From: Candidatus Woesearchaeota archaeon
GTDB taxonomy: Archaea > Nanobdellota > Nanobdellia > Pacearchaeales > GW2011-AR1
Length of the DNA: 53,830 nucleotides
Direction: 5' to 3'
Assembly (NCBI GenBank): GCA_964594115.1
Contig: CAZQLD010000007.1
Span: forward strand, 1-53,830
The translations under genes and the position numbers were made by a program. Positions 24,062 to 43,342 of this stretch are shown in pieces. Below the pieces are notes generated by a model. The model made no database searches, was not told where the DNA came from, and was given only the letters and a program-made list of their open reading frames with translations. How positions within the stretch are numbered: position 1 is the first letter of the stretch; each line of letters opens with the position of its first letter.

Positions 24062-24778
24062 TTAATTATCAACATATCTATCTAATATTTTATCCAAACC
24101 TCTTTCTTTTATCCAATTTTCATTTAAAGCAGGATCATCAAAACTTCCATCTAAATGGAGATAATTAAAACCTCCTTCTCCAAAACTAGCTGGTCCTTTA
24201 TCATCTACTACTCCAATTTCATTTATTGTTTGCCTTGTGCTCCATCCACTAACACCCTTTTCACATACTCCTCTAAAAATATATTTTAATCCTAAATCAG
24301 TTCCAGGCCAGAAATAGTTCTTAGAAAATAGCTTATCTTTAATCTTACTTAACCACGATTTGCCCCTTAAATCTTCAACTACTTTCCAAAACCAAAAAGT
24401 ATTTCTTCGCCCACGCTGATTTTCTGCTGTATAAGAAACAGGAATTGTGGAAAACCCTCTTCTCTCACAATTATATGCTCCAGCATGCTTATTAAAATAT
24501 TCTCTTTGAAATATAAGTGCTATTTTATCTTTTTCTAATACAGTTACAATACAATCCTTTCTTCCTCTCTCTTTAGGATCCTCTATTCTTATTCTTTCAG
24601 AGTACTTTTTGTCTTCTTCTGATAAGATTACTGTTCCATCTTGTAAAATTTTATTTAATATAATTTCTAATTTAATTCCCTTGTAAGTAACATTTTGGAA
24701 ATCTCCTTTGTCAATTTTAACCTGCCTCTTTAAATCTTTATCTTCTCCCATTTTAACATCTTTCATCAAAAGAACCAC
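24062..24778 (-). CDS. Hypothetical protein (last gene of beta-barrel operon A)
   Basis: 238-aa ORF overlapping the upstream gene; no motif recognised. Confidence 0.65.
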   Translation of the reverse strand: MVLLMKDVKMGEDKDLKRQVKIDKGDFQNVTYKGIKLEIILNKILQDGTVILSEEDKKYSERIRIEDPKERGRKDCIVTVLEKDKIALIFQREYFNKHAGAYNCERRGFSTIPVSYTAENQRGRRNTFWFWKVVEDLRGKSWLSKIKDKLFSKNYFWPGTDLGLKYIFRGVCEKGVSGWSTRQTINEIGVVDDKGPASFGEGGFNYLHLDGSFDDPALNENWIKERGLDKILDRYVDN

Positions 24779-25115
24779 AAAGTCTCCAAAAGTCTTCTAA
24801 CCAAGAAGTTTTTGAAAATTTCTTTCTCCTTTTTTCAATTTCTGCTAATAGATATTCTCTTGCAGATTCCACTTCTAAAGGGCTGAATTGTTTACCAATA
24901 TAATTTCCAACATCATAAAAACCCTTAAATATTTTTTCTATTTTAGATAAATTTTCTCTGTCAAAACTAAATCTATCAGGATAAGATTCGCTAAGAGATA
25001 ATTTTAAACCTATTTCATATGCAGATAATGCCTCAATTCTTGCTTTCTTTGCTACTCCCTTTAAATTTCTATCTAGCTCTTCTAAAACTCTTTTAAGATA
25101 GGGTGTTGTTTTCAT
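24753..25115 (-). CDS. Uncharacterised helical protein, paralog of 38948-39298
   Basis: ATG 25115 follows a GGAGG SD; shares NYxGxQFxPLEVxSARExLLxEIEKR with its paralog. Confidence 0.8.
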   Translation of the reverse strand: MKTTPYLKRVLEELDRNLKGVAKKARIEALSAYEIGLKLSLSESYPDRFSFDRENLSKIEKIFKGFYDVGNYIGKQFSPLEVESAREYLLAEIEKRRKKFSKTSWLEDFWRLCGSFDERC

Positions 25116-25116
25116 C

Positions 25117-25743
25117 TTACTTTCCTCCAAATTTATATTGCAAACTAATAAAAATCATATCATCCTTGTTGTTTCTAAGAACATCTGTATCATAAGACAA
25201 CAATGCACTAAGGTTTTTCGTTATATTTACTGTAAGAGAAGGTCCTATATAGAAAAAAGGCTTTTTCCCATCATCTTTTTTTGCATAACCTAATAAGCCT
25301 GCTTTAAATGTATCATTAAGCTTATAATCTATTGTTGGAATAAAATAAAAATGATTTGCTGACAGGTCATTTAGCCCCCAAAAATATCTTAACTGAGAGT
25401 TTATTGTTAATTTATCATCTAAAGCTTTTATTTGATAATCTGTCCTTATTCCCATCCAGCTTCTATCTTTATTATCAGACTTAAAGTAAAAATAAGGGGT
25501 AAAATTGCCAAACTTCCTTCCTAACATTAAATCAGTTCTCTGAGTTCCTGAAGGTGCAGTATGAATAAAGGGCTTAAATTTAAAAACATCATTTCCTTTA
25601 GTATAACTTAATTCTGTTGAAAATAATTTTATTGTTTCATTTTCAGAGGCTCTTACATTTTTAACACCAGCAAAAAGTACCAAAGGTACTAAAATAGGAG
25701 CTACTATTTTTCTTACAAAGCTTTTAATTCTTGAGCTTTTCAT
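25117..25743 (-). CDS. Secreted predicted beta-barrel protein (small, roughly 8-12 strands)
   Basis: Signal peptide ending VRA; alternating amphipathic strands with aromatic girdle residues; ends FISLQYKF-GGK. Confidence 0.65.
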   Translation of the reverse strand: MKSSRIKSFVRKIVAPILVPLVLFAGVKNVRASENETIKLFSTELSYTKGNDVFKFKPFIHTAPSGTQRTDLMLGRKFGNFTPYFYFKSDNKDRSWMGIRTDYQIKALDDKLTINSQLRYFWGLNDLSANHFYFIPTIDYKLNDTFKAGLLGYAKKDDGKKPFFYIGPSLTVNITKNLSALLSYDTDVLRNNKDDMIFISLQYKFGGK

Positions 25744-26927
25744 TTTTTACCCCCTAAAGGAATATACAAACTAACACTAACATAACTCCTGTCTTTTCTG
25801 TCTTCAAAGAACTGATGTCCTGCTTCTAATTTTACTGGACCTTTCCCTAGAACGCCATGAACTCCATAAGAGTCACTTACTCCTCCAATTCCATTTGTAT
25901 AAGTTCCATAAATTCCTAGATTTCCAAACTGATAGCCTAAATCTCCTTCAATGTATCCTTTTCTTTTTCCAGTTGTATTAATATTCCCTGATACTCTAAA
26001 AGCTAGTCCTTTTTTGCTTCTTTCAACAACAGTTGGTGGCTCAATTGTTGTAACAGGAGAGTTTATTACATGAGGGCTAAGTATGTAGCCCTGATTTCTT
26101 CCTACAAACGCAGGTCCGCTTCCGTTTTTGCTAAAAGTAGGGTTTTCAGCTGTAGTGGATTTAAAAGCAATATTTTCAGAACCATGTTTCCAATCATAAA
26201 TTAATATAGTCCTGTTTCCCCATTTAACATCTCCATGCCTCATAAAATATGCTCCAAGTTTCTTTGTTCTAATGTCATTATCTGGAAGCAATAAACCAAC
26301 TCCTAACTGATGGTTTTTGTCCATGTTCCAAATAGTTTTTCCACTAAAATAATTAATATCCCCTTCAGGAGTGTCAACTTTATCAATTCCAGCTCCAAAA
26401 TTCCATGTTTCTCCAAATCCGTGCTCAAATCCTGCTCCAACCCTTCTGCTGTCGCTTGAAAAACTATCTTCTATGTTTAGAAATAAGTCTAAATCTCCAA
26501 AACTAGTAATTCCCTCCATACCTATTCCTTGCTTGTCTCCTGATTCTCCAAAAACACTAGCAGAATATTCTAAATCTCCAGTTTTAAATCTTGGTATAAT
26601 TAAACCATAAGAATTCCAGTCAGTATCTTTTCCACCTACTTCTCCGTTAAAATGATAACTTCTGAAAATTTCATTAAACCTGCTATACTTGCCGTCAACA
26701 GGAGCAATTCCAATTGTACCTTTAGTCAGATGCTCATCCTTACTTTCAGTATGTTCTAATCTTGTTCTAACAGAATAATTATTTTTTAGAAAATTATTAA
26801 AAGTTACAGGGTTACTTAATGTTCCTGAGTTAGCTGCATTTGCATTTCCAATAATTCCAGCTAAAGTTGTCACAATACCTACCGCAAGTTTTTTCCATAA
26901 TGGCATTTTTTTAGGTTTCATTTTCAC
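25740..26927 (-). CDS. Secreted predicted large beta-barrel (porin-like) protein
   Basis: Signal peptide ending ANA; many Gly/aromatic amphipathic strands; ends YVSVSLYIPL-GGKK. Confidence 0.6.
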   Translation of the reverse strand: MKMKPKKMPLWKKLAVGIVTTLAGIIGNANAANSGTLSNPVTFNNFLKNNYSVRTRLEHTESKDEHLTKGTIGIAPVDGKYSRFNEIFRSYHFNGEVGGKDTDWNSYGLIIPRFKTGDLEYSASVFGESGDKQGIGMEGITSFGDLDLFLNIEDSFSSDSRRVGAGFEHGFGETWNFGAGIDKVDTPEGDINYFSGKTIWNMDKNHQLGVGLLLPDNDIRTKKLGAYFMRHGDVKWGNRTILIYDWKHGSENIAFKSTTAENPTFSKNGSGPAFVGRNQGYILSPHVINSPVTTIEPPTVVERSKKGLAFRVSGNINTTGKRKGYIEGDLGYQFGNLGIYGTYTNGIGGVSDSYGVHGVLGKGPVKLEAGHQFFEDRKDRSYVSVSLYIPLGGKK

Positions 26928-26933: not shown

Positions 26934-27689
26934 TTAAAATCCATAACCTATCCCTACTCCTCCATAGGTGAATTGTTCTGTTGTGTCATCATTTAGAGAA
27001 AGTTGTCTTCTTACAAATCCGTTTATATTCCAGCTTCCTTTTCCTATTCTCACTGAAATTCCAGGAGAAACATGTCTAAATCCATCAATCCCATACATAT
27101 CCCTTGTATAACCCATAGATATTTCAGGAGCTACTGAGACTTCTGCTCCTGCAATTTTCCCTATTGGGAATGCTTTTGAGATTTTTCCTGAAATTGATTC
27201 ACCGTCTGGAGCACCATCTTTAGCAAACATATGAAGCCCGCCAAAACGGGCATCAATAAATCCATTATAAGAAAGTTCTCCTCCGACAAGATAATCAGAT
27301 CTCCACTTATCAGAAACAGGAAAAGTCCAGTTCATAAAAGTTCCACTTAAAGATAATTTATTTGTCAAAGAATGTGTGTAAGTAATCCATGAATCTATTT
27401 CTTGCTTCCCACTATCTTCTCCTCCTCCAATAGCATTAGAATGAAAAAGATTTCCTGAAATAGGGCCCTTGTTGATGCTAAGAAAACTCTGGCTAGATCT
27501 TCTAGCAATTCTGTCCCCAGAAGGAATAACCCAGTCACTTACTATGCTTGTTTCAGCATAACCTCTAATTGGTTCATCTTTAACTTTTTCTAAAGAACCA
27601 CACCCGATAGGCAGGAAAGTTAAAAGAGTGACTAGACCTCCAGCCACAGCATTTCTTATTCTTGATTTAAATGATTTTTCTACTTTCAT
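26934..27689 (-). CDS. Secreted predicted beta-barrel protein resembling TIGR02001/TorF-like putative porins
   Basis: Signal with LPIGC; VSDWV, EIDSWITY and WTFP; C-terminal GGVGIGYGF. Likely start ATG 27689. Confidence 0.7.
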   Translation of the reverse strand: MKVEKSFKSRIRNAVAGGLVTLLTFLPIGCGSLEKVKDEPIRGYAETSIVSDWVIPSGDRIARRSSQSFLSINKGPISGNLFHSNAIGGGEDSGKQEIDSWITYTHSLTNKLSLSGTFMNWTFPVSDKWRSDYLVGGELSYNGFIDARFGGLHMFAKDGAPDGESISGKISKAFPIGKIAGAEVSVAPEISMGYTRDMYGIDGFRHVSPGISVRIGKGSWNINGFVRRQLSLNDDTTEQFTYGGVGIGYGF

Positions 27690-27691
27690 TT

Positions 27692-27710
27692 TATACATAT
27701 ATTATGTGTT
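27692..27710. promoter_or_regulatory. Imperfect inverted-repeat operator TATACATA-N3-TATGTGTT
   Basis: Matches the perfect palindrome at 31415-31433 with the same spacing; lies between the TATA (about 27728-27737) and the start. Confidence 0.45.
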
Positions 27711-27835: not shown

Positions 27836-28519
27836 ATGAGAAAACCATCCTTGCATATTGAAATAGAAAATTTAATAAGAAAAAGGCATGAAATTCTTTT
27901 AAGAGAGCATATAAAACTTAAAAAAAAGAAAATTTACAAGATTGATAACTATAAGTTAGTTGTTTATCCTGATGTTTTCCCCCCTTTTGATGACTCTTTA
28001 TTTTTTTACAGATTCCTTAAAAATTTAAAAAATCCTGGCAGTGTATTAGATATGGGAACAGGGTCTGGCGTTCTTTCTTTGGCTGTAAATAAAACAGCTA
28101 AGGAAATCATAGCTGTGGATATTAATAAAGAGGCGATAAAGTCGCTTAAAGAAACAATAAAAGCCAATAAATTAGAAAAGATAAAAGCAAAATTTAGCAA
28201 CATATTTTCTAATATAAACAAAAAATTTGATACAATCACTTTTAATCCTCCATTTATGTATTTTAAACCAAAAAACAACCTAGAAAAAGCAATTTGCAAT
28301 CAAAACTATAAAGATTTAGAGAGATTTTTCAAACAAGTAAGAAAGTATCTAAAGAAAAAAGGCAAAATTTATATGATTTTTTCAGACATTGGGGATATAA
28401 ATTATTTAAAAAGATTGATTGAAAAAAATAAATTTAAATATAAAATTCTAAAAGAGAAAAAAGCCATCCCTTTAGTAGGAAATGAAAGGTTTTATTACTA
28501 TATTTTTGAGATAAAATGA
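27836..28519 (+). CDS. HemK/PrmC-family SAM-dependent methyltransferase
   Basis: VFPPFDDS, LDMGTGSG and FNPPF. Confidence 0.88.
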   Translation: MRKPSLHIEIENLIRKRHEILLREHIKLKKKKIYKIDNYKLVVYPDVFPPFDDSLFFYRFLKNLKNPGSVLDMGTGSGVLSLAVNKTAKEIIAVDINKEAIKSLKETIKANKLEKIKAKFSNIFSNINKKFDTITFNPPFMYFKPKNNLEKAICNQNYKDLERFFKQVRKYLKKKGKIYMIFSDIGDINYLKRLIEKNKFKYKILKEKKAIPLVGNERFYYYIFEIK

Positions 28520-29406
28520 AAAGAAAACTTGTAAAGCAAGGAGCAGCAACAATGATGATTAGCCTGCCCAGCAAATGGATTAAGGCTAATGAGCTTAATA
28601 AGGGAGATGAAATAGAGATAGATGAAAAGCAAAATTCTATTATTATTGGTTTAGGAGGGAAAAAATCTAAAAGACAGACAGAGATGACTCTTGCTTCATC
28701 AACAGAATCTTCAGTAAGAACTATTTTAACTAATGCCTATAGACTTGGTTATGATAAAATAAATCTAAATTTTCAAGATAAAAAAGCATTAAAAATAATA
28801 CAAAATACAGTAAATCATAATTTAATAGGTTTTGAAATAATTAAAAAAACAAATAAAAACTGTGAAATAGAGAATATAACAGAACCTTCTAAAGAGCAAT
28901 TTGATAATATTTTTTCTAAAATATTTCTTAATATAGATGAGTTATTTATAATAGCAGAAAACATGCTGCATGGTAGGAAAAAAGAATTTGAAGAAATAGA
29001 GCAAAAAATACAGCAGTATGATAATTTTTGCAGAAGAGTCATAGCTAAAAATGAGCTTTATGGAATATATCAGCTAAAATGGGCTTTTCATGCTGAACTT
29101 ATACATGCACAAAGAGAGCTTTATTTGTTATTAAAATACTTAGAAAAAAATAAAACAAAAGCAGATAAACTTGTTTTCCAGTTATTAGAAGATTGTAAGA
29201 AAGTATTCAAGATATTGAAACAAGCATATAAAGAGAAAAGCATTGAAAAATTAGAGAAAATTCATGATTTGGAAAAAGAAATGATTTATAAAAAAGGTTA
29301 TTCTTCATTAAAAAAATCAGTGGGCAGGATAGAGGCTCATCATATCCTTGCTGCTATCAGAAACTTCTACCTTGCTTCCTCTCCTTTGATTGGGACTTTT
29401 ATCTAA
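28516..29406 (+). CDS. AbrB-domain/PhoU-like regulator (archaeal phosphate uptake regulator family), copy 1
   Basis: N-terminal RKLVKQGAATMMISLPSKW...GDEIEI swapped hairpin, AYRLGYD, and helical PhoU-like repeats. Confidence 0.85.
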   Translation: MKRKLVKQGAATMMISLPSKWIKANELNKGDEIEIDEKQNSIIIGLGGKKSKRQTEMTLASSTESSVRTILTNAYRLGYDKINLNFQDKKALKIIQNTVNHNLIGFEIIKKTNKNCEIENITEPSKEQFDNIFSKIFLNIDELFIIAENMLHGRKKEFEEIEQKIQQYDNFCRRVIAKNELYGIYQLKWAFHAELIHAQRELYLLLKYLEKNKTKADKLVFQLLEDCKKVFKILKQAYKEKSIEKLEKIHDLEKEMIYKKGYSSLKKSVGRIEAHHILAAIRNFYLASSPLIGTFI

Positions 29407-31239
29407 GTTTTCATTTCCTTGAACTTCCCAGCCAGTACCCCAGTTATTTTTTTTAGGTATTTTATTAAAATCAACATTTCCTTCTTCATCAGTTATCATG
29501 TATAAAGCTAAAGCTGTGTTGATTAATTTCTGTTGATGATAAGGCAAGTAACTTCCATAGCCTGATTCTTTATATCCTCCTGCCCTTTCAACAATTTTCC
29601 ACTTTGGAAAATAATTTATACTTCCTGTTTTTACTTTTGCTGTATTTATTTCTTCAAGGGAAGAAAAATAATTTGTAAAAACATCTGCAATAGTCCCTTG
29701 AGGAACAAAACACTGTTTTAGATACGTTACACCATGAACTACTTTAGCAGTATTATGTGCTATATCTGAATCAGAATTTTCATTTCTTAAAAGGAAGTAT
29801 TTTGGAACAAAACTTGGAAAAAGTCTTTCTTCTTTATCTGCCTTATATGTTTTTATAAGCTCTTTGTTCAGATAGCAAGCTCTTAACCAAGATGAAATAA
29901 GTCTTTTAGGCATTAAATGAATATCTCTTGAAAATCTGGTAAGCTCTTTTATATCTAGCTCTCTTTTTCCAAATTTAACTTCTGGAAGATTTTCTTTTGC
30001 TTTTTCCATATAAGGGACCAGTATTTCAAAAGCAAGATCCTTATTAGAGCTGTCAAGATTATCTAAACTAAAATTTCTATAATCTTCTCTCATTAGAATG
30101 TCCCTTAATCTTGGTCTTGTTTCGCTATTCCTAGCAGTGATTATTCCTCCAGTTACAGCTCCAGCCAGTACTGCTCCTGTGCAAATAGGAACTGAGTATT
30201 TTAGAAATTTAGCAAAAGCTTCTTTTAGTTTTCCAGCTAAACCAGAATTTATTTTTTCAATGTATCTTTTAACATCATACATGTTTCTGATTTCTTTTTT
30301 AGGGTTAATTGTTAAACATCTATAAATTAATTTTTTCCATTCTTTAGGAACTTTATTAAGAGCTTTTTTTAAATTTTTTTCATGTATTTCTTCTGTAATT
30401 TCTTCTAAAAATTTTTCTCCTTCATTTAACTGAACTCTATATAATTTTCCATTAATTCTAATTGACTTTCCAGCAATATCAGAGCAAATCTTGTATTGAA
30501 GGGGGGTTTTTCCTGTTAATGAATATAAGAAGGTTCCGCCAAGAGCATAAACTTCTGTTCTACAGGTTGCCTTAGATGGATGTCCTGAAACTAGGGCATT
30601 AAGCAAGCTAGGATGTGTATATGGTGTTCCTCCTCTTGTAGGCATGATATTTTCATGAATCTCGGTTCTTCTAGCTGCATTTTGTAAGTCAGAGATTTTA
30701 ACATTTCCTGACCTTGTTATAATTATATTTGAAGGTTTAATATCTCTATGCAAAATAAATTGTTCATCATTAAGATACTGTAATGCTCTTACAACTTGTC
30801 CGAATATTTTAATGACTCTCTTTTTATCTTTGAGAGGGCCTGTTGTTTGAATATGAGCTTCTAAGTCTGTTCCTTCATAATAAGCTTCTGCATTTACTGT
30901 CTTTCCGTCTAATCTAAAATTATCAACAACTTCTACAATATTTGGATGCTGTATTTCATTAGAAACATTTACTTCTGCTATATCTCCATCTCTCTTACTT
31001 TTATTTATTAAAGTGCATATTGAATCTGGGTCAATTTCTGTTTTTGGAATTTTTAATACCCTTAGCTTACTAACTTCTCCTGCAGAGTATCTTGCAAGAT
31101 AAGCTTCTCTTGTTTGCCCTTCTCCTAATTTATGCAGGATTTCATAGCCTCTTTCTTTTAATATTCTTGTTTCTTCTTCTGTTAAGCCATTTTCCTGTTC
31201 AATAAGAGTTTCTGCTTTTAATGTATCTGCAAGAATCAT
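29317..31239 (-). CDS. Membrane-anchored Ser/Thr protein kinase 1 with C-terminal ectodomain
   Basis: LGEGQT, VLK, HPNIV, HRDIKPSN, DLQ in place of DFG, GGTPY; TM at about aa 349-369. Confidence 0.9.
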   Translation of the reverse strand: MILADTLKAETLIEQENGLTEEETRILKERGYEILHKLGEGQTREAYLARYSAGEVSKLRVLKIPKTEIDPDSICTLINKSKRDGDIAEVNVSNEIQHPNIVEVVDNFRLDGKTVNAEAYYEGTDLEAHIQTTGPLKDKKRVIKIFGQVVRALQYLNDEQFILHRDIKPSNIIITRSGNVKISDLQNAARRTEIHENIMPTRGGTPYTHPSLLNALVSGHPSKATCRTEVYALGGTFLYSLTGKTPLQYKICSDIAGKSIRINGKLYRVQLNEGEKFLEEITEEIHEKNLKKALNKVPKEWKKLIYRCLTINPKKEIRNMYDVKRYIEKINSGLAGKLKEAFAKFLKYSVPICTGAVLAGAVTGGIITARNSETRPRLRDILMREDYRNFSLDNLDSSNKDLAFEILVPYMEKAKENLPEVKFGKRELDIKELTRFSRDIHLMPKRLISSWLRACYLNKELIKTYKADKEERLFPSFVPKYFLLRNENSDSDIAHNTAKVVHGVTYLKQCFVPQGTIADVFTNYFSSLEEINTAKVKTGSINYFPKWKIVERAGGYKESGYGSYLPYHQQKLINTALALYMITDEEGNVDFNKIPKKNNWGTGWEVQGNENLDKSPNQRRGSKVEVSDSSKDMMSLYPAH

Positions 31240-31403
31240 TTTTCTTCCTCCAATATATCTATTGTAAGTTTAGTTATAGTGCCTGGGCTCAATTGTTTTT
31301 CTAGAATTCTTGGTATGACTATAATTGCCTGGCTACCATGTTTAGCAATTTTCTTTGTTATGATGAACTGCTTTTTATTCTGTTTTACTTTTTCCTTAGT
31401 CAT
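31236..31403 (-). CDS. Small AbrB/SpoVT-type (DUF2080-like) DNA-binding protein
   Basis: IITKKIAKHGSQAIIVIPR...TKLTIDILEE; ATGA overlap with the kinase. Start is 31403 or 31421. Confidence 0.8.
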   Translation of the reverse strand: MTKEKVKQNKKQFIITKKIAKHGSQAIIVIPRILEKQLSPGTITKLTIDILEEEK

Positions 31404-31414
31404 CTTACTGTAGC

Positions 31415-35969: not shown

Positions 35970-37319
35970 TTATTTTAATTCTCCTTGCAAATCTAGAAAT
36001 ATTGGGTGCCCTTTTCCACTAGAAGCATATGTTTCAGCTGCTTTTCTAGCTTTTTCTAACTTTCCTTTTTGTATAAAACTCATAACTGTTTGATAGTTTT
36101 TACTGCTTTCTAAAACTCTTTTTTTAACTCCAGAGATTTCGTCAGTTCCCTCCCTAAGAAGTGTTTTAACTGCATGCAAGGCCAAAGGATCTTCTCTAGT
36201 ATCATCTTTAAATTTATTGATGGTCTCTTCAGTTAATCTTATTCTGTGCCATAAAGCATAAGGTGCAACTGTTAAAACATGCTCTAAATTAGCCTGCTTT
36301 TTACCTTGCAACCATGCTAAAGCTTTAGAATATCTAACTATGCTTTTATCTAATCTTCTACTCCCACTCCCTTTAACTAAATTATATAAATAATGGCCTT
36401 CCTCTGAGCTTATTGGGTCATTACTTCTTTTTTGACCATATTTTGGGTGTTGATTAAGTTCTGAAATTAAAAATCCTAAATAAGTAACAGCATCTCCATC
36501 TAAACCAGTAGATTCAATCTCTTTATCCACAGCAACTAATTCCTGTTCTGTCAAGGTATCCAAATTCCTCTTTTTTAATTCAGCTCCAAAACTATCAGAA
36601 AGTTTTTTTAAACCAGGTGAAATTTCTTCATAAGGTTTTTTAGAATTTAATAAATCTAAAATTTCTCTAGATATTTTAGGATCTTTTAAAATCCCCTCTT
36701 TCCCATTATTCCAACTATTGCTAATAGCAATAGCATTTGATACTCCTGGAAACTTGCTTTCAGTTGCTACATCAAATCTATCTAACAATGGAGGAATTAG
36801 AGTATTGCTTCCTCTATCTTCATAGTTACAAGTTGCAAAAAAAGGCTGTCTTCCTTGGGCAATATGGCTATTCAAATAACCCCACTCTCCCCTATCTACA
36901 CCATCTAATAACATTGATTGATTTGATTCTGGAATTCTATTAAACTCATCAACAAGTTTTGGTTGGATTAAAACAAAATTCTGCCAAATAACTTCTTCTT
37001 GACCTTGATGCATTCTACCATAATCAGGTCTTCCAACTGTCTTCTCCTGAGTTAATTGCGGATTCCCCCTAATAACAGATCTTCTAACAATATCTATAGG
37101 AATATTATGAAAAACGCTATGTAAGTATTCAGCAGAAGTTGTCTTTCCTCCACCATATTCTCCAAATAAAATCTGGTTTCCTTTATTAAGCTCTGTTAAT
37201 ACTCCAAAAAGAAGAGATGAACTAAACTTCTCTCCACCAACAGATAAATCATCCCTACATAGGTAAAAATCATTTTTTATTACCCCATACAAACATAGAA
37301 CTTTATTTTGCAATGCCAT
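35970..37319 (-). CDS. MoxR/RavA-type AAA+ ATPase
   Basis: GEYGGGKTT, LVDEFNR, FATCN and PPLLDRF; likely start MALQNK at 37319. Confidence 0.88.
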   Translation of the reverse strand: MALQNKVLCLYGVIKNDFYLCRDDLSVGGEKFSSSLLFGVLTELNKGNQILFGEYGGGKTTSAEYLHSVFHNIPIDIVRRSVIRGNPQLTQEKTVGRPDYGRMHQGQEEVIWQNFVLIQPKLVDEFNRIPESNQSMLLDGVDRGEWGYLNSHIAQGRQPFFATCNYEDRGSNTLIPPLLDRFDVATESKFPGVSNAIAISNSWNNGKEGILKDPKISREILDLLNSKKPYEEISPGLKKLSDSFGAELKKRNLDTLTEQELVAVDKEIESTGLDGDAVTYLGFLISELNQHPKYGQKRSNDPISSEEGHYLYNLVKGSGSRRLDKSIVRYSKALAWLQGKKQANLEHVLTVAPYALWHRIRLTEETINKFKDDTREDPLALHAVKTLLREGTDEISGVKKRVLESSKNYQTVMSFIQKGKLEKARKAAETYASSGKGHPIFLDLQGELK

Positions 37320-37323
37320 TTTC

Positions 37324-37926
37324 CTACTCCTTCTTAGCTGATTTTTGGGAAGCAATGTAATCAGTTAGGTCTTGACATTTTGTTGCAGCATACAGGAGCT
37401 CGGCGTTTACTTCTGGACGAACTTTACCAAGATTTTCTTTATCCAAATCTACCAATGTTTCACATTTAGAATCTATTTCTGCCACAAGTTCTTTAATTCT
37501 TTCTTCTAATGTTTCGTCTAAACTTACGTAAGCTGCTCGTAGAGATGCCATAGTTGCTACAGAAAGTTGTCCTTCATGATACGCTTTTGCTTTAATTGCT
37601 TGGATGTTTTGTCTTGGTATTTTCCCCTTATATTTAATTATATCAAAATTAGTGAATAATGTTCTCACATCTGGATTAATAGGTTCTCCTAGCTCTGATG
37701 AAGTTTGTAATACATAACCAATTGCACCTTCTTTTGGTAATTCTGAAGCACGATCTGTAATTGTCTTTTTTATTCCGGCAAGGTCAACACCATCCTTATA
37801 TGCATCACGATTTTTTGTTCGTGTTTGGATATTAGCTATTCCACCAATGATCTCAATGGGTTCTCCTGAATCTTCAATGACAAAACCCTTATCTGGGGTT
37901 AAAATAATTTTTTTCAAATTTTCCAT
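37324..37926 (-). CDS. Hypothetical protein
   Basis: 200 aa, tightly coupled in the operon. Confidence 0.7.
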   Translation of the reverse strand: MENLKKIILTPDKGFVIEDSGEPIEIIGGIANIQTRTKNRDAYKDGVDLAGIKKTITDRASELPKEGAIGYVLQTSSELGEPINPDVRTLFTNFDIIKYKGKIPRQNIQAIKAKAYHEGQLSVATMASLRAAYVSLDETLEERIKELVAEIDSKCETLVDLDKENLGKVRPEVNAELLYAATKCQDLTDYIASQKSAKKE

Positions 37927-37928
37927 TT

Positions 37929-38267
37929 TTACAATCCAGCCTCCTTGGCTTTTCTATTATATTTTTCATATTTATCTGAAAAATTTCTAATTAAGGGTCG
38001 CTTACTTGTACGGACATAAACATTTCCTACAGGATTTCCAAGATTCATTGCAACATAACTAGAAATGTAAAGTGTTTGAACTTCAAATCTTCCAAGAGTC
38101 TTAAAATGACGGGATGCTATGGTGTCCTTATAAATAACAAGTTCTTCTCTTCCATCAAAATTTAAAATATCTCTTACCTTAGAAGAACTTGGAAATTTGA
38201 CAACACAATCTAAGGTTTTTGCTTGTCGTATCTTTGATTCTGCTATTTTTTTAGTTTTTTTTGCCAT
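37929..38267 (-). CDS. Hypothetical basic protein
   Basis: 112 aa, in the operon. Confidence 0.65.
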   Translation of the reverse strand: MAKKTKKIAESKIRQAKTLDCVVKFPSSSKVRDILNFDGREELVIYKDTIASRHFKTLGRFEVQTLYISSYVAMNLGNPVGNVYVRTSKRPLIRNFSDKYEKYNRKAKEAGL

Positions 38268-38281
38268 TTTACTTTCTTATT

Positions 38282-38575
38282 TTAGAATATCCCTGCTTTT
38301 TCTTGCAAAGATTGTGGTGTTCCTTTTTTTCTGAATAATTTTACTAATTTGCCTATTTTTTGTGGAAGGTTATATCCAGGGCATTGTTTAGCCAATCTTT
38401 CATTATAAATCTTAGAACCGAAACTAACACTATGTCCACTTATATTCTCTCCATCAAGTTCAAAAGGTTCATTATCTTTAATTTCTGGCGCTGCTACACA
38501 AGGATTTTTAGTCAAAGTACAATACCAACTATTTTTCCTTGGACTTGTATATGCGCAACCTGGTGTTCGACACAT
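38282..38575 (-). CDS. Cys-rich hypothetical protein (possible metal binding)
   Basis: CRTPGC...CTLTKNPC...QCPGY. Confidence 0.65.
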   Translation of the reverse strand: MCRTPGCAYTSPRKNSWYCTLTKNPCVAAPEIKDNEPFELDGENISGHSVSFGSKIYNERLAKQCPGYNLPQKIGKLVKLFRKKGTPQSLQEKAGIF

Positions 38576-38576
38576 T

Positions 38577-38945
38577 TTACTCCTCTCTTGCAGGCTTTAG
38601 ATGTACAATATATTTATTTTCTTCAATCCATACATGATGTAAAGGTTTATTTTCAAAATAAGTAACAGAGAAATGGGGAGTTACTCCTGCAGCGTATTCT
38701 TCAAAGGAAGCAGAAGAATCATATTTTAAAGAAGGCATTTTTTGAACTATGGGAGAAATTTCAGTTACATTTTGGTTGTTAGAGGAATAGCTTACTAAGA
38801 CCTCAAGAAAAGTGTTCATTCTAATAGGTTCTCCTGTTGAATCTACAACCTGGCAATGCTCACTAAATAATTCTAGTCTTTCAGTTAAATCTTTCAATTC
38901 ATTTTCATTATTTACTTTAAAAATTCCTTTAAATTTCACTGTCAT
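38577..38945 (-). CDS. Hypothetical protein
   Basis: 122 aa, TAA-AA-ATG coupled. Confidence 0.65.
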   Translation of the reverse strand: MTVKFKGIFKVNNENELKDLTERLELFSEHCQVVDSTGEPIRMNTFLEVLVSYSSNNQNVTEISPIVQKMPSLKYDSSASFEEYAAGVTPHFSVTYFENKPLHHVWIEENKYIVHLKPAREE

Positions 38946-38947: not shown

Positions 38948-39298
38948 TTATCTCTTCAAATATTTACGCAAATTTTCCCAAAAAGAAGGTTTAGAATATT
39001 TTCTTTTTCTTTTTTCTATTTCTGATAATAAAAATTCTCTTGCAGAATCTACTTCTAAAGGACCAAATTGAAAACCAACATAATTTGCTTTGCTAAAATA
39101 ATGTTCATGATACACTTCAAAAGCTTCTTGAGGTTTAGGAAATTTATTACCATAATTATTCCAAAAAGAGTAATCTAAACCAAGTTTATATTTTCTTAAA
39201 GATTCTAGTTTTTCTTCTCTAGATAATTTTCTTAGGTCTCTATCAAGACTTCTCAAAGCATATTCAAGATAAGGTGCTGGTTTCAATTTTTTCGCCAT
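38948..39298 (-). CDS. Uncharacterised helical protein, paralog of 24753-25115
   Basis: PYLEYALRSLDRDL...NYVGFQFGPLEVDSAREFLLSEIEKR. Confidence 0.8.
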   Translation of the reverse strand: MAKKLKPAPYLEYALRSLDRDLRKLSREEKLESLRKYKLGLDYSFWNNYGNKFPKPQEAFEVYHEHYFSKANYVGFQFGPLEVDSAREFLLSEIEKRKRKYSKPSFWENLRKYLKR

Positions 39299-39299: not shown

Positions 39300-39602
39300 T
39301 TATTTTCCTTCTTCTAATTTATTTACTTCAGCCTGTCTCTTTAATAACTCATAAACATAAACCCCTGCGAGATAAGTCGCAAATCTATCACTACAATATT
39401 CATCTGCAAATCTGTCTAATGCTTTTGTAACTTGGGGATTTGTTGAGGAAAGGTGTCCTGTTAACCTTTCTATATTCTTTAGGACTGATTCGAAACCCTC
39501 TCTGTCAAACTGTTCATTATCTCTAAAAAATAAGTCAATTGTGTCCTGTGCCAGTACAGGCAAGCCCTCTGGTGTGTATCTTTCATTTTTCATTTTCCTC
39601 AC
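39300..39602 (-). CDS. Small helical protein of unknown function
   Basis: GLPVLAQDTI...TNPQV...AGVYVYELLKRQAE; start GTG 39602 or ATG 39593. Confidence 0.75.
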   Translation of the reverse strand: MRKMKNERYTPEGLPVLAQDTIDLFFRDNEQFDREGFESVLKNIERLTGHLSSTNPQVTKALDRFADEYCSDRFATYLAGVYVYELLKRQAEVNKLEEGK

Positions 39603-40331
39603 CTAAAATTTATAGCCAAGACTAACGCCACCCCATGTTTTATCTTTGATAAAATCTTCTTGGCTGTATTGTTTATTTACAGAAATATTCAGATTCCAGT
39701 TTCCTTTATTGAGTCCAAGAGAAACTCCAGGAGTAACCTGGGTATGGCCTGTTTTTCCATAGTAATTCTCTATGACCGAAGTGCTTAGACTAGGGGTTAA
39801 TGAAATATCGGTTTTTCCTAGTTTTCCTATTGGAAATTTTTTTGAAATTCTCCAGTAATATCTATTTCCACTTTTAGGGGTTGTTTTAGTTGGGAGTAAA
39901 TGTGTTAATTCAAAGTCTAAATCAAATTTTCCAGAATAATGGGCTCCAGCTTTCAAAACACTATCATAATCTCCAAAAGTTCCAGAAGGGTAGCCCCAAT
40001 ATTCATATCCTCCTCTTATAGAAAATCTATCTGTTATAGGCAAAGAATGGCTTATTCCAAAATCCCTCTCATTAAAAGCACTTTCTTCATATGAATAATT
40101 CTGCCATACAAATCCAGAGAACATATCATTAAAATTTACATTAATTAAGTCTTGTCTAACCTGTCCTTCAACCATTACACCATGTTTTGCAACATAATCT
40201 GAAACAAGGGCGGTTTCAACATAAATATCTGGCTTTTTCATATTATTAAAACAGCCAGAAACTGCTCCTAATAAAGCAGCTAGTCCGGTTATAGCTGCTT
40301 GTTTTATTCTTGAACTCCATTGGTTTTTCAT
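39603..40331 (-). CDS. Secreted predicted beta-barrel protein (TIGR02001/TorF-like), paralog of 26934-27689
   Basis: Signal with VSGC; VSDYV, NERDF and YWGYP; C-terminal WGGVSLGYKF. Confidence 0.75.
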   Translation of the reverse strand: MKNQWSSRIKQAAITGLAALLGAVSGCFNNMKKPDIYVETALVSDYVAKHGVMVEGQVRQDLINVNFNDMFSGFVWQNYSYEESAFNERDFGISHSLPITDRFSIRGGYEYWGYPSGTFGDYDSVLKAGAHYSGKFDLDFELTHLLPTKTTPKSGNRYYWRISKKFPIGKLGKTDISLTPSLSTSVIENYYGKTGHTQVTPGVSLGLNKGNWNLNISVNKQYSQEDFIKDKTWGGVSLGYKF

Positions 40332-40474
40332 TTTCCTTCCTCTAAAATATCTATTTTGATTTTCACAAGCATCTGGGGTTTGAGATGTCCTGCCAGCACA
40401 CTTGGAATGACGATTACTGCCTGCTTTCCGTGCTTTGCAATTTTCTTTGTTATTATGTATGAGTTTTGTACCAT
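40328..40474 (-). CDS. Small AbrB/SpoVT-type (DUF2080-like) protein, paralog of 31236-31403
   Basis: Manual translation MVQNSYIITKKIAKHGKQAVIVIPSVLAGHLKPQMLVKIKIDILEEGK; ATGA overlap with the barrel gene. Not in the ORF track. Confidence 0.85.
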   Translation of the reverse strand: MVQNSYIITKKIAKHGKQAVIVIPSVLAGHLKPQMLVKIKIDILEEGK

Positions 40475-40534: not shown

Positions 40535-40558
40535 TGATATTATTGATATCACTGATAT
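40535..40558. repeat. Three TGATAT direct repeats with 9-bp period in the divergent promoter
   Basis: TGATAT at 40535, 40544 and 40553, just upstream of the BRE/TATA GAAAACCTTAAAAA. Confidence 0.55.
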
Positions 40559-40601: not shown

Positions 40602-41510
40602 ATGGAAAGAAGACTCATAAAACAAGGAGGAGGAGGCTTTACTATCTACCTTCCAAAAAAATGGGTAGATAAAAAAGGCCTGCATGAAGGAGACATCGTA
40701 GATGTGAAAGAAATAGATAGTTCTTTGATAATTGGAAGTGAAATTAAAGGGAGAGAAGAGATTATAATAGAGATTAATGAAGAAAATAAAGAAGATATAG
40801 GAGCTATTCTTACACATGCGTATAGAAGAGGATTTAACAGAGTAATATTGAAGGGAGTGGATAGTGGGCTGGCAAGAAAAGCGAGGCAGGTAACAAAAGA
40901 TCTGCTTTTAGGTTTTGAAATAACAGGAAAATCTGAAAAAGAAGTAAAAATAGAAAATATTTCAGAGCCAACAGAACAAAAATATGATGTTATGTTAAGA
41001 AAGATTTTTTTGATAATAAAAGAGACTCAAAATATGATTATTGAAGATTTTCAGCATATTTATGAAAACTGGGATGAAATTGAAGAAATGAGAAAAAATC
41101 AGGATAAGTTTATATTATTTTGCAGAAGATTGCTAATAAAGGAAAAATATGAAAAAGAACCTGTTTTAGAGTGGGAGCTTCTAACTTTTTTAATGCATAT
41201 AGAGCATGCTTATTTTTATTTATATAAATATGCTAAAGAAAATAAAGTTAAGATAGATAAAAATGCTGTGGAGTTATTAAAAAAACTTGAAGAGCAATTT
41301 TCTCTGTATCAGGATGCGTATTTTCATAAAAACATAGAGAATTTGTATAAAATAATGAAGCAAAAGACAAAGTTCCAGTTTGGCAAGTGTTTAGAATTAA
41401 TTGAAAAATCAAAAGGTAAAAATGCAGTTATATCCTCTTATATTAGAGAATTATTCAGGTTGCAACAAATAGGATGCAGCCCTATTTTATCAAAGAATCT
41501 TTCATACTAG
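40602..41510 (+). CDS. AbrB-domain/PhoU-like regulator, copy 2
   Basis: RRLIKQGGGGFTIYLPKKW...GDIVDV, AYRRGF, and QDKFILFCRR. Confidence 0.85.
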   Translation: MERRLIKQGGGGFTIYLPKKWVDKKGLHEGDIVDVKEIDSSLIIGSEIKGREEIIIEINEENKEDIGAILTHAYRRGFNRVILKGVDSGLARKARQVTKDLLLGFEITGKSEKEVKIENISEPTEQKYDVMLRKIFLIIKETQNMIIEDFQHIYENWDEIEEMRKNQDKFILFCRRLLIKEKYEKEPVLEWELLTFLMHIEHAYFYLYKYAKENKVKIDKNAVELLKKLEEQFSLYQDAYFHKNIENLYKIMKQKTKFQFGKCLELIEKSKGKNAVISSYIRELFRLQQIGCSPILSKNLSY

Positions 41511-43121
41511 CTATTTTTTAATTATCTCAAGAGTTTCTTTTATATTTTTTTGGTTTTCTATAAATCTCTGTTCTTGTTCTTTCCTTTTTTCTGCTTCTAT
41601 TCTTTCTTTCTGTTTTTTTGCTTCATATGATTCTCTTGCATTTTTCCAGTCATTTTCAAACTCTCTATATTTATCTGTTCTCATCCGTATCATAATCATA
41701 TCATGATAATTATGAGCTATTTGCCAAATTTCCCAATAAGCTTTAGAGCCCTTTTCTTCTAAAAATGGCTCTATTGTTTTATAATTGAAATCTGTATCAT
41801 TTTTATCCAGTTTAGCATCCATCATTGCTTCAAAAACACCATTGGGGTCAAAATAAGCAGCTAACCCGACTTTTCTGTCCTTGAATTTAAATAAAGCTGC
41901 TTCAAGTTTGCCATCTTCTGTAAAAATATCATAAGGATGGCTAAAAGCTATTCCTAAATCTTCTTTTCCTCTTCTCTGAAGATATAAATTAACTACCTCT
42001 CTTTTCTTTTTAGCTTCTGCATTTTCGTTAAGTTGCTCAACTTTATCTTCCAAAACACCAGTTGCTTTTTGAGTACTAATGAGGCCAGCTGTTGCACCTG
42101 CAAGTATAGTTGCAGCAGCTGCTATGCTTCCATATCTTTTTAGTCTTGAACGTAATGATGTTTTTTTATATTTTTTAATTGCTTTTTCTAAGCCATTTTT
42201 CATTTCTAAACCATTTTTATATCTTCTTACTGGATTTAGGGATAAGGATTTTTCCAAAAAACTTCTAAAAGCTCTTGGAACATTTTTTATTTTTTGGGAA
42301 AGTTCTCTTTGGTTTGTTTTAAACCCTTGATAAACTCTTTTTTTAGTGAGCATTTCATAGAATATAGAGCCTAGACTCCAAACATCTGCTCTTGAACTGG
42401 GCTCAGCATTTTCTTCAAAAACTTCAGGAGCTCTATAGTTTTTATCTCCATGAGGCCCCCTTTTACTTCCATTTCCTCCAATTGAAATGCAGGTAGTAGA
42501 ACCAAAATCACCTAAATAAGCTCTCCCATCGTTAATAAGGATGTTTGAAGGCTTGACATCGCTATGAGCCTCTCTATGTTCGTGTATGTAAGCAAGCGCC
42601 TCTGTAATATCTTTTATTATTTTTATATTTTCATCCAAGCTTAAACTATGCAACCTACTAGAAAGGTCTCCTTCTTCATAAACAGGCATAGCAATATACA
42701 TTTTTCCTTTTCTATCTCTTTCTATAATTCTTGGAACAACATGGCTATGAGCAGCATAAAGAGGAATCGCTTCTCTCCTCATAACATCTTCTTCTGTCCA
42801 TTTTCTGTCCTCCATTTGTTTTTTTGCTGTTTCATTAGGACTAAATATTTTTATAGCCCATTTTTGATCTCCCGCATCTATATATTCATCTACAATCCCC
42901 CAACAACCATACCCTAATTCTTTCCCAGTTGGCTTAAATGTATCGCTATCTATATACTCTGTAACTGCTCTTTCTCTTTGTTCCTTTATCGCGAAAAGAT
43001 TTTCTCTATTTTGAGTAAAAAATTTCCTTTTATATTCTCTATTCTTCTCTTTCATACCTCTTATAGCTGCATCTACAACAACTTCAGAACTTGCACCTAC
43101 TAAATATTTAAGATTACTCAT
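41511..43121 (-). CDS. Membrane-anchored Ser/Thr protein kinase 2 with C-terminal ectodomain
   Basis: LGYGCWG, AIK, HSDVKPSN, DFG, YRAPE and DVWSLG; TM at about aa 331-349. Confidence 0.92.
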   Translation of the reverse strand: MSNLKYLVGASSEVVVDAAIRGMKEKNREYKRKFFTQNRENLFAIKEQRERAVTEYIDSDTFKPTGKELGYGCWGIVDEYIDAGDQKWAIKIFSPNETAKKQMEDRKWTEEDVMRREAIPLYAAHSHVVPRIIERDRKGKMYIAMPVYEEGDLSSRLHSLSLDENIKIIKDITEALAYIHEHREAHSDVKPSNILINDGRAYLGDFGSTTCISIGGNGSKRGPHGDKNYRAPEVFEENAEPSSRADVWSLGSIFYEMLTKKRVYQGFKTNQRELSQKIKNVPRAFRSFLEKSLSLNPVRRYKNGLEMKNGLEKAIKKYKKTSLRSRLKRYGSIAAAATILAGATAGLISTQKATGVLEDKVEQLNENAEAKKKREVVNLYLQRRGKEDLGIAFSHPYDIFTEDGKLEAALFKFKDRKVGLAAYFDPNGVFEAMMDAKLDKNDTDFNYKTIEPFLEEKGSKAYWEIWQIAHNYHDMIMIRMRTDKYREFENDWKNARESYEAKKQKERIEAEKRKEQEQRFIENQKNIKETLEIIKK

Positions 43122-43261
43122 TTTCTATCCTCCAGAATTTCATTTAATGCAAATTCAAATGCATGACTTCTGTTTCTAAATTTTCTTTTTAAAATAGATT
43201 CATCTACCTTTGCTAGAGTTTCTTCATCAACTGAAACACTAATCTTGGATTTTTTTGCCAT
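43118..43261 (-). CDS. Ribbon-helix-helix (CopG/Arc/MetJ-like) regulator, 47 aa
   Basis: Manual translation MAKKSKISVSVDEETLAKVDESILKRKFRNRSHAFEFALNEILEDRK; ATGA overlap with kinase 2. Not in the ORF track. Confidence 0.85.
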   Translation of the reverse strand: MAKKSKISVSVDEETLAKVDESILKRKFRNRSHAFEFALNEILEDRK

Positions 43262-43300
43262 TTTTGTAATATTTTTACTTGGTAGCACTTAGTATGACTG

Positions 43301-43342
43301 CTTTATAAATCTTTCTATTTGTAGTTACTTTAGAGTGATAGT
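43301..43342 (-). promoter_or_regulatory. Conserved extended promoter, copy 2
   Basis: ctttataaatctttctatttgtagttactttagagtgatagt; 38/42 identical to 31461-31502. Confidence 0.8.

Follow-up and report, generated by a model that had tools for sequence, protein, structure and literature searches.

In Bacillus subtilis, the Hanks-type kinases PrkC, PrkD and YabT phosphorylate AbrB. A comparable pair of genes was found in a DNA stretch of 53,830 nucleotides (the window) that forms positions 1 to 53,830 of contig CAZQLD010000007.1 from a Candidatus Woesearchaeota archaeon. The region 24062-43342 of this window consists of two diverged copies of one layout, each containing a membrane-anchored eukaryote-like kinase and a regulator of the AbrB/SpoVT fold, and phosphorylation of the regulator may be proposed by analogy with B. 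subtilis. Unlike in B. subtilis, kinase and regulator here form a fixed convergent gene pair that is duplicated and, among the loci retrieved, confined to DPANN archaea; the regulator, of about 300 amino acids, has two extra domains, and the kinase ectodomain belongs to a new family and not to PASTA. Signalling from a kinase to a transcription factor is already known; what is new is the fixed convergent pairing, an operator, the confinement to DPANN archaea among the retrieved loci and a porin-like cargo. Full-text searches of the available papers turned up neither this cassette nor any outer-membrane-type barrel of Woesearchaeota or Pacearchaeota.

Other described proteins resemble individual parts of the locus. 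The archaeal AbrB plus PhoU proteins (COG0704-type fusions) are similar in size to the two regulators of the window and share with them an AbrB-type N terminus and an all-helical C-terminal half; unlike these fusions, the window regulators lack a detectable Pfam PhoU domain, contain an alpha/beta middle domain and have no pst genes nearby. A 254-amino acid protein encoded near one of them belongs to a family that resembles OmpG, KdgM/NanC, Tsx, PcoB and LpxR in its predicted 12-13-stranded barrel, its signal or lipobox segment and its C-terminal aromatic-x-Phe. In contrast to the bacterial barrels, this family has no membership in a described sequence family, and its archaeal host has no known outer membrane or beta-barrel assembly machinery (BAM). 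For archaea of the DPANN grouping, a barrel-like protein of the outer-membrane type has been mentioned in passing, as a possible distant PopA-like porin relative in Altiarchaeales (PMC12228718); that protein, however, belongs to a different superfamily and a double-membraned lineage, and no regulatory cassette was described there.

The reading that we favor, with confidence slightly better than even, is that two old paralogs of a signalling cassette specific to Woesearchaeota and Pacearchaeota make up the region. In this cassette, a receptor kinase would act on an AbrB-type regulator and the regulator on its own promoter and on a divergent envelope/uptake operon. The cassette would consist of a single-pass membrane kinase of the Hanks type that has an extracytoplasmic sensor domain and whose gene shares a transcript with that of a tiny AbrB or ribbon-helix-helix (RHH) protein; a convergent regulator of about 300 amino acids with an N-terminal AbrB/SpoVT domain; and a divergent, variable operon for envelope or uptake proteins, which here would supply predicted barrels and their small cytoplasmic partners. 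DPANN archaea are abundant, mostly uncultured symbionts whose host sensing and metabolite acquisition are largely unknown. Gene order connects surface and uptake genes with a lineage-wide cassette that can be recognized from sequence alone, by its receptor Ser/Thr kinase, AbrB-type regulator and GATAT-repeat operator. The cassette therefore offers experimental handles: the operator, the putative kinase-substrate pair and the candidate pores.

The region is densely coding, with open reading frames (ORFs) at the coordinates given here for its genes, and within its operons adjacent genes overlap or lie at most about 20 nucleotides apart. In each module, the minus strand carries a barrel-led operon and the plus strand the gene of an AbrB-type regulator; convergent with the latter is the gene of a membrane Ser/Thr kinase, which has a tiny DNA-binding leader gene. 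In module 1, operon A (minus strand) has five genes, for products of 254, 395, 208, 125 and 238 amino acids; the plus-strand pair encodes a HemK2/MTQ2-like methyltransferase and a 296-amino acid regulator, and the minus-strand pair a 61-amino acid AbrB-type protein followed by a 640-amino acid kinase. In module 2, the 14 genes of operon C (40474-31535, minus strand) begin with a 47-amino acid AbrB-type gene and a gene for a 242-amino acid lipoprotein, and are accompanied by a 302-amino acid regulator (plus strand) and an RHH gene that heads the operon of a 536-amino acid kinase (minus strand).

Comparison by blastp within the region showed how far the two copies have diverged. The barrels of 254 and 242 amino acids were 30% identical over their full length (E = 4.6e-32), two small proteins of 125 and 116 amino acids that share a PLEVxSARE motif 41% (E = 6e-27) and the regulators of 296 and 302 amino acids 31% (E = 8e-39). 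The small AbrB-type genes of 61 and 47 codons (31236-31421 and 40329-40474) are clear homologs that have a 72-nucleotide DNA repeat, D2, in common. By sequence comparison these four paralog pairs are solid. The two kinases, which an earlier note on this DNA had counted as a fifth pair, align only within the kinase domain (22% identity, E = 3e-6), and their ectodomains are unrelated. The same note had described a single four-part layout occurring twice; two diverged copies are indeed present, but the description was overstated. The small AbrB gene stands at the head of the kinase operon in module 1 and of the barrel operon in module 2, the RHH leader of kinase 2 is unrelated to the AbrB leader of kinase 1, and there are three putative barrels in module 1 against a single one in module 2, which also contains about nine additional cargo genes. 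The conserved core is the kinase-regulator pair with a variable divergent operon.

To place the region among its relatives, one genome per GTDB species was scanned with a regulator alignment (A6) as the query. The scan yielded 264 relatives; locus counts given below refer to the best 78 of these, labelled with L-numbers (L007, L018 etc.). Both regulatory pairs had orthologs on a Woesearchaeota contig (L007/L010) that was reached via P0005, the nearest barrel relative on a long contig. For module 2, these comprised the RHH protein (85% identity) and kinase 2 (49.5%), convergent with regulator 2 (72%); for module 1, the small AbrB protein and kinase 1 (50% over 584 amino acids, ectodomain included), convergent with regulator 1 (71%). 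Barrel-led operons diverged from each regulator, and the barrel of P0005/L007 was 48% identical to the 242-amino acid barrel. The Pacearchaeota genome RBG_13_36_9 (L018) contained the same two-module tandem in the same order, with a kinase 2 ortholog at E = 3e-119, and also had the methyltransferase-regulator 1 arrangement, two PLEVxSARE genes and the 100-amino acid gene of operon C. Because orthologs (45-85% identical) are far more similar than paralogs (about 30%), the duplication is older than these lineages, and the earlier view of an old, maintained architecture is borne out by the tandem modules of both genomes.

The pairing of regulator and kinase was counted for the 71 regulators with at least 1.5 kb of downstream sequence. 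At 56 of them a kinase gene adjoined tail to tail, at a distance of -91 to +116 bp from the regulator 3' end, so that the linkage first noticed in this window is also found in relatives. When regulators and kinases were assigned to subtypes, we counted 30 R1-K1 pairs, 24 R2-K2 pairs and no mixed pair (Fisher p = 7e-16, with related genomes entering as non-independent observations).

An assembly artefact would explain the region as a collapsed or duplicated repeat, or as an archaeal contig joined to a bacterial contig that supplied the barrels. The idea draws on the presence of outer-membrane-type barrels, which are unexpected in archaea, and on the labels of some related contigs, one deposited as Coatesbacteria and several as Methanosarcinales. 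The paralogs, however, whose strong divergence had led the earlier note to set an assembly repeat aside, are just about 30-40% identical, and the G+C content is uniform at 0.28-0.34 across the region and equal to that of the flanks. Independent contigs from several samples run from the first hydrogenase gene through operon A, others begin in operon A and reach kinase 1 by way of the methyltransferase and regulator 1 genes, and six further contigs join the gene for a von Willebrand factor type A (VWA) protein, the 137-amino acid gene, the small AbrB1 gene and kinase 1. The barrel genes overlap genes of archaeal context, and distant barrel-family members lie beside RFC, TrmB and TYW2. Because the junctions are bridged in assemblies made independently from six or more samples and base composition is uniform, both an assembly repeat and a chimera are excluded; the same arrangement recurs in three genomes, and we give an artefact practically no weight.

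An origin in the Woesearchaeota/Pacearchaeota group, as the earlier note had it, is supported by the record titles of the relatives and by archaeal-type flanking genes. The flanks encode a short triosephosphate isomerase (TIM, 208 amino acids), a DeoC-family aldolase, a PGI-type SIS domain protein and sulfhydrogenase-like [NiFe] hydrogenase subunits. Almost all of the best 78 loci were titled Woesearchaeota, Pacearchaeota, Nanoarchaeota or Nanoarchaeia, one complete Woesearchaeota chromosome among them. A virus or mobile element was also considered as the source and rejected, since no relatives were found on viral contigs; the window contained no integrase genes or flanking repeats and no tRNA, rRNA or Rfam features. 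Cassette contigs deposited under other names comprised one "Coatesbacteria bacterium" and several "uncultured Methanosarcinales archaeon" records (the contigs concerned include L020, JAFGND010000082.1, and L023, L027, L033, L035, L039, L045 and others); these labels probably reflect mis-binning or mislabelling and not a true occurrence in those groups.

Kinase 1 (640 amino acids; 29317-31239, minus strand) and kinase 2 (536 amino acids; 41511-43121, minus strand) both carry a Hanks-type Ser/Thr kinase domain, scoring 101.1 and 124.1 bits against the Pkinase model, for which the gathering cutoff is 31.7 bits. As read from the translations, kinase 1 has the motifs HRDIKPSN, ...SDLQ (in which the Asp is kept and FG is not) and VLKIPK, and kinase 2 the motifs HSDVKPSN (of the non-RD type), GDFG and WAIKIF. 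Both proteins thus keep the ATP-binding Lys as well as the catalytic and the Mg-binding Asp. For kinase 1, one transmembrane helix near residue 349 and a 270-amino acid extracytoplasmic domain of a novel family are predicted; in kinase 2, a transmembrane segment read by eye lies near residue 335 (GSIAAAATILAGATAGLI) and is followed by a C-terminal region of 190 amino acids with a coiled-coil-like tail. A hydropathy scan with a strict threshold found a single transmembrane segment, within residues 283-426, in 34 of 60 long kinase ORFs, and the C-terminal domains across the scanned long ORFs spanned 180-530 amino acids. By this predicted topology, in which the kinase domain is followed by a transmembrane helix and then by an extracytoplasmic domain, the kinases are of the receptor type. 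The kinase ectodomain had been called transglycosylase-like, a label that found no support: an alignment of 14 members of the kinase 1 ectodomain family (A10) gave no Pfam match at E <=0.1 except one irrelevant match, and its profile matched no PDB sequence below E = 0.2.

The genes of kinase 1 and regulator 1 converge, with a 90-bp overlap of their coding 3' ends (29317-29406); in relatives the overlap is usually 3-40 bp. Such an arrangement could permit antisense or transcriptional-interference coupling of the two genes; kinase 2 abuts regulator 2 tail to tail. Each kinase gene has a tiny leader. The small AbrB-type protein 1 (61 amino acids; 31236-31421, minus strand) is encoded by a gene that overlaps the start of kinase 1, and a small RHH (CopG-like) protein (43118-43288, minus strand; likely start ATG at 43261) is encoded ahead of kinase 2. 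Among paired kinases in the relatives, 42 of 54 are preceded by such a leader (AbrB in 29, RHH in 13).

Upstream of both kinase operons we found a 42-nucleotide promoter/operator element, at 31461-31502 (minus strand) before the small AbrB1-kinase 1 operon, with the B recognition element (BRE)/TATA-like sequence AGAAAGGTTTATAAAG inside it, and at 43301-43342 (minus strand; repeat D8) before the RHH-kinase 2 operon. The pair is 90% identical, has only these two copies in the window against 0 expected by chance, and is common to both operons although their first genes are unrelated; the shared cis-elements claimed for the two modules are therefore real. Kinase operons of L018 and L047 have similar elements in their upstream regions, and matches like it occur at other places in L010, L031, L073 and L055. 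The right half resembles an ordinary strong archaeal BRE/TATA sequence, so no defined binding site is claimed within the element; the left half alone may be the operator. A weaker copy with 9 mismatches was seen at 50971-51012 (minus strand), just upstream of a gene for a 411-amino acid protein (49714-50949) with a weak HTH_24 match; the copy would mean either that this gene is under the same regulator or that the right half of the element is no more than a generic strong BRE/TATA sequence.

The small AbrB or RHH gene that lies directly upstream of each kinase gene and overlaps it recalls a toxin-antitoxin pair, and one could read the cassettes as toxin-antitoxin-like or defence modules, HipBA-type or kinase-based, and the island as a defence island. 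Both kinases also match PADLOC kinase models (e.g. mad6, PD-T4-6), and MoxR/VWA pairs such as that of operon C occur in conflict systems. The PADLOC matches, however, are limited to the generic kinase domain (plus the radical S-adenosylmethionine, or SAM, protein), with no other defence component found, and single-pass kinases of 536-640 amino acids with large ectodomains have the architecture of receptors and not of HipA; no toxin family was detected. The lack of integrases and flanking repeats in the window and of relatives on viral contigs, together with a position that is stable and syntenic across genomes, also speaks against this reading, and we consider this explanation very improbable.

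Regulator 1 (296 amino acids; 28516-29406, plus strand) matches the AbrB/SpoVT domain PF04014 with 27.2 bits (cutoff 24.7), and its paralog regulator 2 (302 amino acids; 40602-41510, plus strand) with 22.1 bits, just below the cutoff; the domain was present in 40 of 40 regulator relatives at E <=0.01. An AlphaFold2 (AF2) model of regulator 1, built on 2 sequences and with a mean predicted local distance difference test score (pLDDT) of 63, suggests an N-terminal AbrB/SpoVT (MazE) domain that is followed by a small middle domain of alpha/beta type and, at the C terminus, by 6-7 bundled helices. The name "AbrB-PhoU" used earlier had to be changed because PhoU was undetected by sequence and the structural matches were non-significant: Pfam PhoU (PF01895) was found in neither window regulator and in 1 of 40 relatives, weakly (E = 0.0019); the regulator profile found no PhoU among PDB sequences; and the PhoU structures 4q25, 1t72, 1t8b, 1xwm and 2iiu matched the model of pLDDT 63 with a template modelling score (TMt) of 0.32-0.47 and Foldseek E values of 0.3-0.9. 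These proteins are better described as regulators with an N-terminal AbrB domain and a helical, possibly PhoU-like, C-terminal domain. The HemK2/MTQ2-like methyltransferase gene (27836-28519, plus strand; Pfam MTS E = 1.8e-21, PRK14968 135 bits, TIGR00537 matches) is co-directional with regulator 1 and overlaps its start.

Module 2 has an operator-like triple repeat, GATATTATTGATATCACTGATAT, in its divergent intergenic region, at 40536-40558 (plus strand), just upstream of the BRE/TATA-like sequence AGAAAACCTTAAAAA of regulator 2. Alignment of this region with its orthologs revealed a block, AATATCTTTCTGATATTATTGATATCACTGATATTAAAAATAGAAAACCTTAAAAA, with three GATAT repeats at a 9-nucleotide period directly upstream of the BRE/TATA-like sequence. 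The triple repeat is single-copy in the window, with 0 expected, and is kept in the orthologous regions of L018, L007, L065 and L052 while the flanks diverge. When 79 regulator genes were searched with the pattern GATAT-N4-GATAT-N4-GATAT, allowing <=2 mismatches, 30 had it about 60-75 bp upstream of the start codon, whereas about 1 was expected; the operator can be written as GATAT-N4-RATAT-N4-RATAT. On the sequence level, the repeat is the strongest evidence of sequence-specific control of the regulator gene and, by its position, of the divergent operon, and autoregulation would be its simplest reading.

The operon that diverges from the regulator varies in content, with a common theme. The first divergent gene product had a signal-peptide-like N terminus in 34 of 62 cases, compared with 97 of 794 background proteins (p = 4e-14), and ended in F or W in 20 of 62, compared with 55 of 794 (p = 3e-8). 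Three barrel-like families were found in 16 of the 78 loci and LivJ-type amino acid-binding proteins in about 9. Because divergent neighbors are enriched for secreted proteins, which include barrels, LivJ-type binding proteins and others, the cargo, as judged from sequence, follows an envelope/uptake theme and is no fixed gene set. In several genomes (L025, L055, L073, L081), two tandem LivJ-type substrate-binding genes are the divergent neighbors of the regulator, and L073 has two separate cassettes, each with a LivJ-type binding protein.

Conserved linkage by itself would also be expected if the kinase-regulator unit acts elsewhere or on itself and the barrel and uptake genes are neighbors by inherited order. 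The wide differences in cargo between loci fit this explanation, as do the barrel-family members that lie far from any cassette and the module 1 promoter, which has no GATAT operator. Gene-order drift, however, would not maintain the strong enrichment of secreted proteins at the divergent position across very diverged genomes, and the operator is located in the shared divergent intergenic region. We therefore regard inherited order alone as unlikely.

Word-indexed homolog searches were near-blind to the proteins of the barrel operons, returning for the barrel itself and 1 match and for the PLEVxSARE protein itself only; a 64-sequence profile used in such a search had at least 3 matches listed, and an exhaustive HMMER profile search of 1.84 billion representatives was needed to expose the barrel family. 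The search gave 250 clusters, 140 of them at E <=1e-10, nearly all of 225-300 amino acids. Among 138 full-length representatives, 120 had signal-like N termini, 93 ended in Phe and 99 in F, W or Y, and a C-terminal motif, G-G-[VI]-S-[LV]-G-Y-x-F, recurred that is similar to the bacterial beta-signal. To date, DPANN-type contexts are the only ones in which the family has been seen; the distant members examined were in archaeal contexts, with RFC, TrmB, TYW2 and HerA genes nearby.

In the window, the family is represented by the 254-amino acid predicted lipoprotein (26934-27698, minus strand; lipobox ...PIGC, C terminus ...GVGIGYGF), the first gene product of operon A, and by the 242-amino acid predicted lipoprotein of module 2 (39603-40331, minus strand), which ends ...GGVSLGYKF. 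Neither has a Pfam match, that is, both fall outside the curated outer-membrane protein sequence families. The AF2 model of the 254-amino acid protein, built on a 3-sequence alignment with pLDDT 73, shows 12-13 long antiparallel strands of 6-15 residues each after the signal/lipobox segment. The top 50 Foldseek matches of this model in the PDB were mostly bacterial outer-membrane barrels, including OmpG (E = 2e-7), KdgM (TMt 0.80), Tsx, PcoB, LpxR and autotransporter beta-domains. The protein is thus predicted to be an outer-membrane-type beta-barrel, possibly a closed one, and the structure model supports the barrel call that had been made for the 254/242-amino acid pair.

Two further secreted proteins of operon A are plausible barrels, to judge from sequence matches below the Pfam cutoffs. 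The 395-amino acid protein (25740-26927, minus strand), putatively of a second barrel family, has a signal-peptide-like N terminus and an OMP_b-brl match at E = 0.0026; its orthologs are first-divergent to regulators in L022, L018, L010, L061, L049 and others. The 208-amino acid protein (25117-25743, minus strand), putatively of a third family, has a signal peptide, ends ...QYKFGGK and matches Phenol_MetA_deg at E = 4e-4 and DUF2490 at E = 1e-3; orthologs were found in L010, L018 and L065. Other cassette-linked secreted proteins gave single weak matches to Autotransporter and DUF481. Since profile-profile comparison linked the 254-amino acid family neither to the 395-amino acid family nor to another cassette-linked secreted family, we do not claim that the secreted families are homologous or that all are barrels.

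Small proteins accompany the barrels in both modules. The small AbrB-type protein 2 (47 amino acids; 40329-40474, minus strand) is encoded by the first gene of operon C, which contains repeat D2 and overlaps the start of the barrel gene. After the barrel gene comes that for a 100-amino acid cytoplasmic protein (39300-39602, minus strand), which follows barrel genes in several genomes and has orthologs adjoining barrels in L010, L018 and L065. The PLEVxSARE proteins of 125 amino acids (24753-25130, minus strand; cytoplasmic and probably helical) and 116 amino acids (38948-39298, minus strand) had no Pfam, PHROG or NCBIfam match, and barrel operons were the only setting of their relatives, of which L018 has two copies and which also occur in L016 and L013. 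Operon A ends with the gene of a 238-amino acid orphan (24062-24778, minus strand) with no family match and no relatives in the 78 loci.

Taken together, these parts suggest how the cassette might work. The ectodomain would sense an external cue, such as host contact or a nutrient, the kinase would phosphorylate the AbrB-type regulator, and the regulator would bind the tandem GATAT repeats in the divergent promoter and so set its own expression and that of the pore/uptake operon. The small AbrB or RHH proteins may autoregulate the kinase operons via the shared 42-nucleotide promoter module. A host-sensing or uptake role is attractive because Pacearchaeota are reported to be strongly host-attached (PMC7906910). 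The sense-and-respond unit proposed in the earlier note is thus the best reading of the gene order, at the level of a prediction.

The analysis shows which genes are present, that they are duplicated, that the pair and the operator are conserved and that the model is barrel-like; the regulatory link we infer from gene order and shared DNA elements, and phosphotransfer, DNA binding, the signal and the membrane insertion of the barrels are predictions. Several points weigh against this reading. The co-variation of subtypes can arise from vertical inheritance of a linked pair without functional coupling. The GATAT operator is seen in module 2, but none was detected ahead of the methyltransferase-regulator 1 unit in module 1. 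A barrel was detectable in only 16 of the 78 loci, which makes barrels one cargo among several, and distant members of the barrel family are located away from any cassette. The barrel model itself depends on three aligned sequences and a pLDDT of 73, and the proteins of 395 and 208 amino acids are called barrels from sub-threshold Pfam matches and have no profile-profile link to the modelled family. Finally, we know of no outer membrane or BamA-type insertase in these archaea; no Omp85/POTRA gene was present in the window, which covers 54 kb of the genome.

A bolder extension of the cassette reading, which we hold to be doubtful, is that Woesearchaeota and Pacearchaeota make genuine outer-membrane-type barrels, placed in an outer layer of their own or in the host membrane and switched by a cassette that senses host contact or nutrients. 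Such barrels would be a real surprise if confirmed. As membrane pores they would challenge the confinement of outer-membrane-type beta-barrels to bacteria and organelles, and in archaea they would be the first porin-like system that is regulated. They could also provide the molecular basis of DPANN-host exchange, serving as a conduit for metabolite uptake in the host cell membrane or in an unrecognized outer envelope layer of the symbiont. If the barrels are not pores, the cassette still annotates several hundred hypothetical genes of Woesearchaeota and Pacearchaeota.

The remaining genes of operon C, all on the minus strand, form an extra block. Four orphans, of 122, 97 (Cys-rich), 112 and 200 amino acids (37324-38945), are spaced from a 32-nucleotide overlap to a 14-nucleotide gap and had no family match and no relatives in the 78 loci; ten orphan proteins compared with PHROGs gave nothing. 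They are followed by genes for a MoxR-like AAA+ ATPase of 461 amino acids (35970-37355; AAA_lid_2 32.5 bits, above the cutoff, and AAA_5 18.1 bits, below it), a 134-amino acid orphan without a match (35564-35968) and a radical SAM/SPASM enzyme (34518-35561) with Radical_SAM and SPASM domains that is NirJ/AhbD- and peptide-maturase-like. The latter matched NCBIfam NirJ2 and AhbD at about 1e-64, all below the (equivalog) cutoffs, and its PDB matches included SkfB and PqqE. Next come a short-chain trans-isoprenyl diphosphate synthase-like protein (33503-34537; polyprenyl_synt E = 1e-24), for which the Pyrococcus geranylgeranyl diphosphate synthase 1wy0 was the best PDB match, a 510-amino acid protein (31969-33501) with an N-terminal HEVGH motif (HExxH) and a weak VWA domain (VWA_2 E = 0.0017, 19.4 bits, cutoff 27), and a 137-amino acid orphan without a match (31535-31948), encoded by the last gene of the operon.

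The 510-amino acid VWA-like protein is likely the partner of the MoxR-like ATPase. As in known MoxR AAA+/VWA pairs, the AAA_lid_2 ATPase gene lies three genes upstream of that for the VWA-like HExxH protein in the same operon, and the combination recurs in L083. Unlike in those pairs, both proteins are highly diverged, with no PDB or NCBIfam match and a sub-cutoff VWA match, and their genes share a barrel-led operon with those of a prenyl synthase and a radical SAM/SPASM enzyme. Pairs of the MoxR/VWA type generally act as assembly chaperones, so a role in maturing envelope proteins is conceivable. In L083 (3765-10909), an AAA+ gene (34% identical) and a VWA/HExxH gene (28%) diverge from an AbrB-type regulator without a convergent kinase, a hint that cargo of the MoxR/VWA type recurs with this regulator family.

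Relatives of the MoxR-like ATPase with 54-72% identity were found in 4 metagenome contigs. It was considered as a conserved part of the cassette and rejected: the gene is missing from L018 and L010, and its closest metagenomic relative, in L091, is led by an RHH gene and sits in different surroundings. No gene of the MoxR/VWA/radical-SAM/prenyl block was present in the operons of the two syntenic genomes (L018; L007/L010), and we regard the block as cargo. The 97-amino acid Cys-rich protein (38282-38575), with six Cys, four of them in its first 26 residues, is encoded in the same operon as the radical SAM enzyme, and the gene of the 134-amino acid protein (35564-35968) lies directly upstream of the radical SAM gene; both proteins are candidate substrates of a peptide-modifying maturase.

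Outside the two modules, the hydrogenase genes form an unusual split cluster: those for a sulfhydrogenase-like [NiFe] large subunit (19198-20523, minus strand) and a small-subunit-like protein (22372-22845, minus strand) are parted by a plus-strand AMP-binding (acyl-CoA synthetase-like) gene (20593-22380). A sugar-metabolism/glycolysis cluster at 4950-16749 encodes a type I (bacterial-type) GAPDH, PGK, the PGI-type SIS protein, a PfkB kinase, the DeoC-family aldolase and the 208-amino acid TIM; a mix of bacterial-type and short or atypical glycolysis forms may be typical of DPANN genomes. Between this cluster and a P-type ATPase gene lies an isolated gene (4036-4839) for a 267-amino acid P-loop protein with a Zot-like match (E = 4e-7) and weak STAND/archaeal-ATPase matches.

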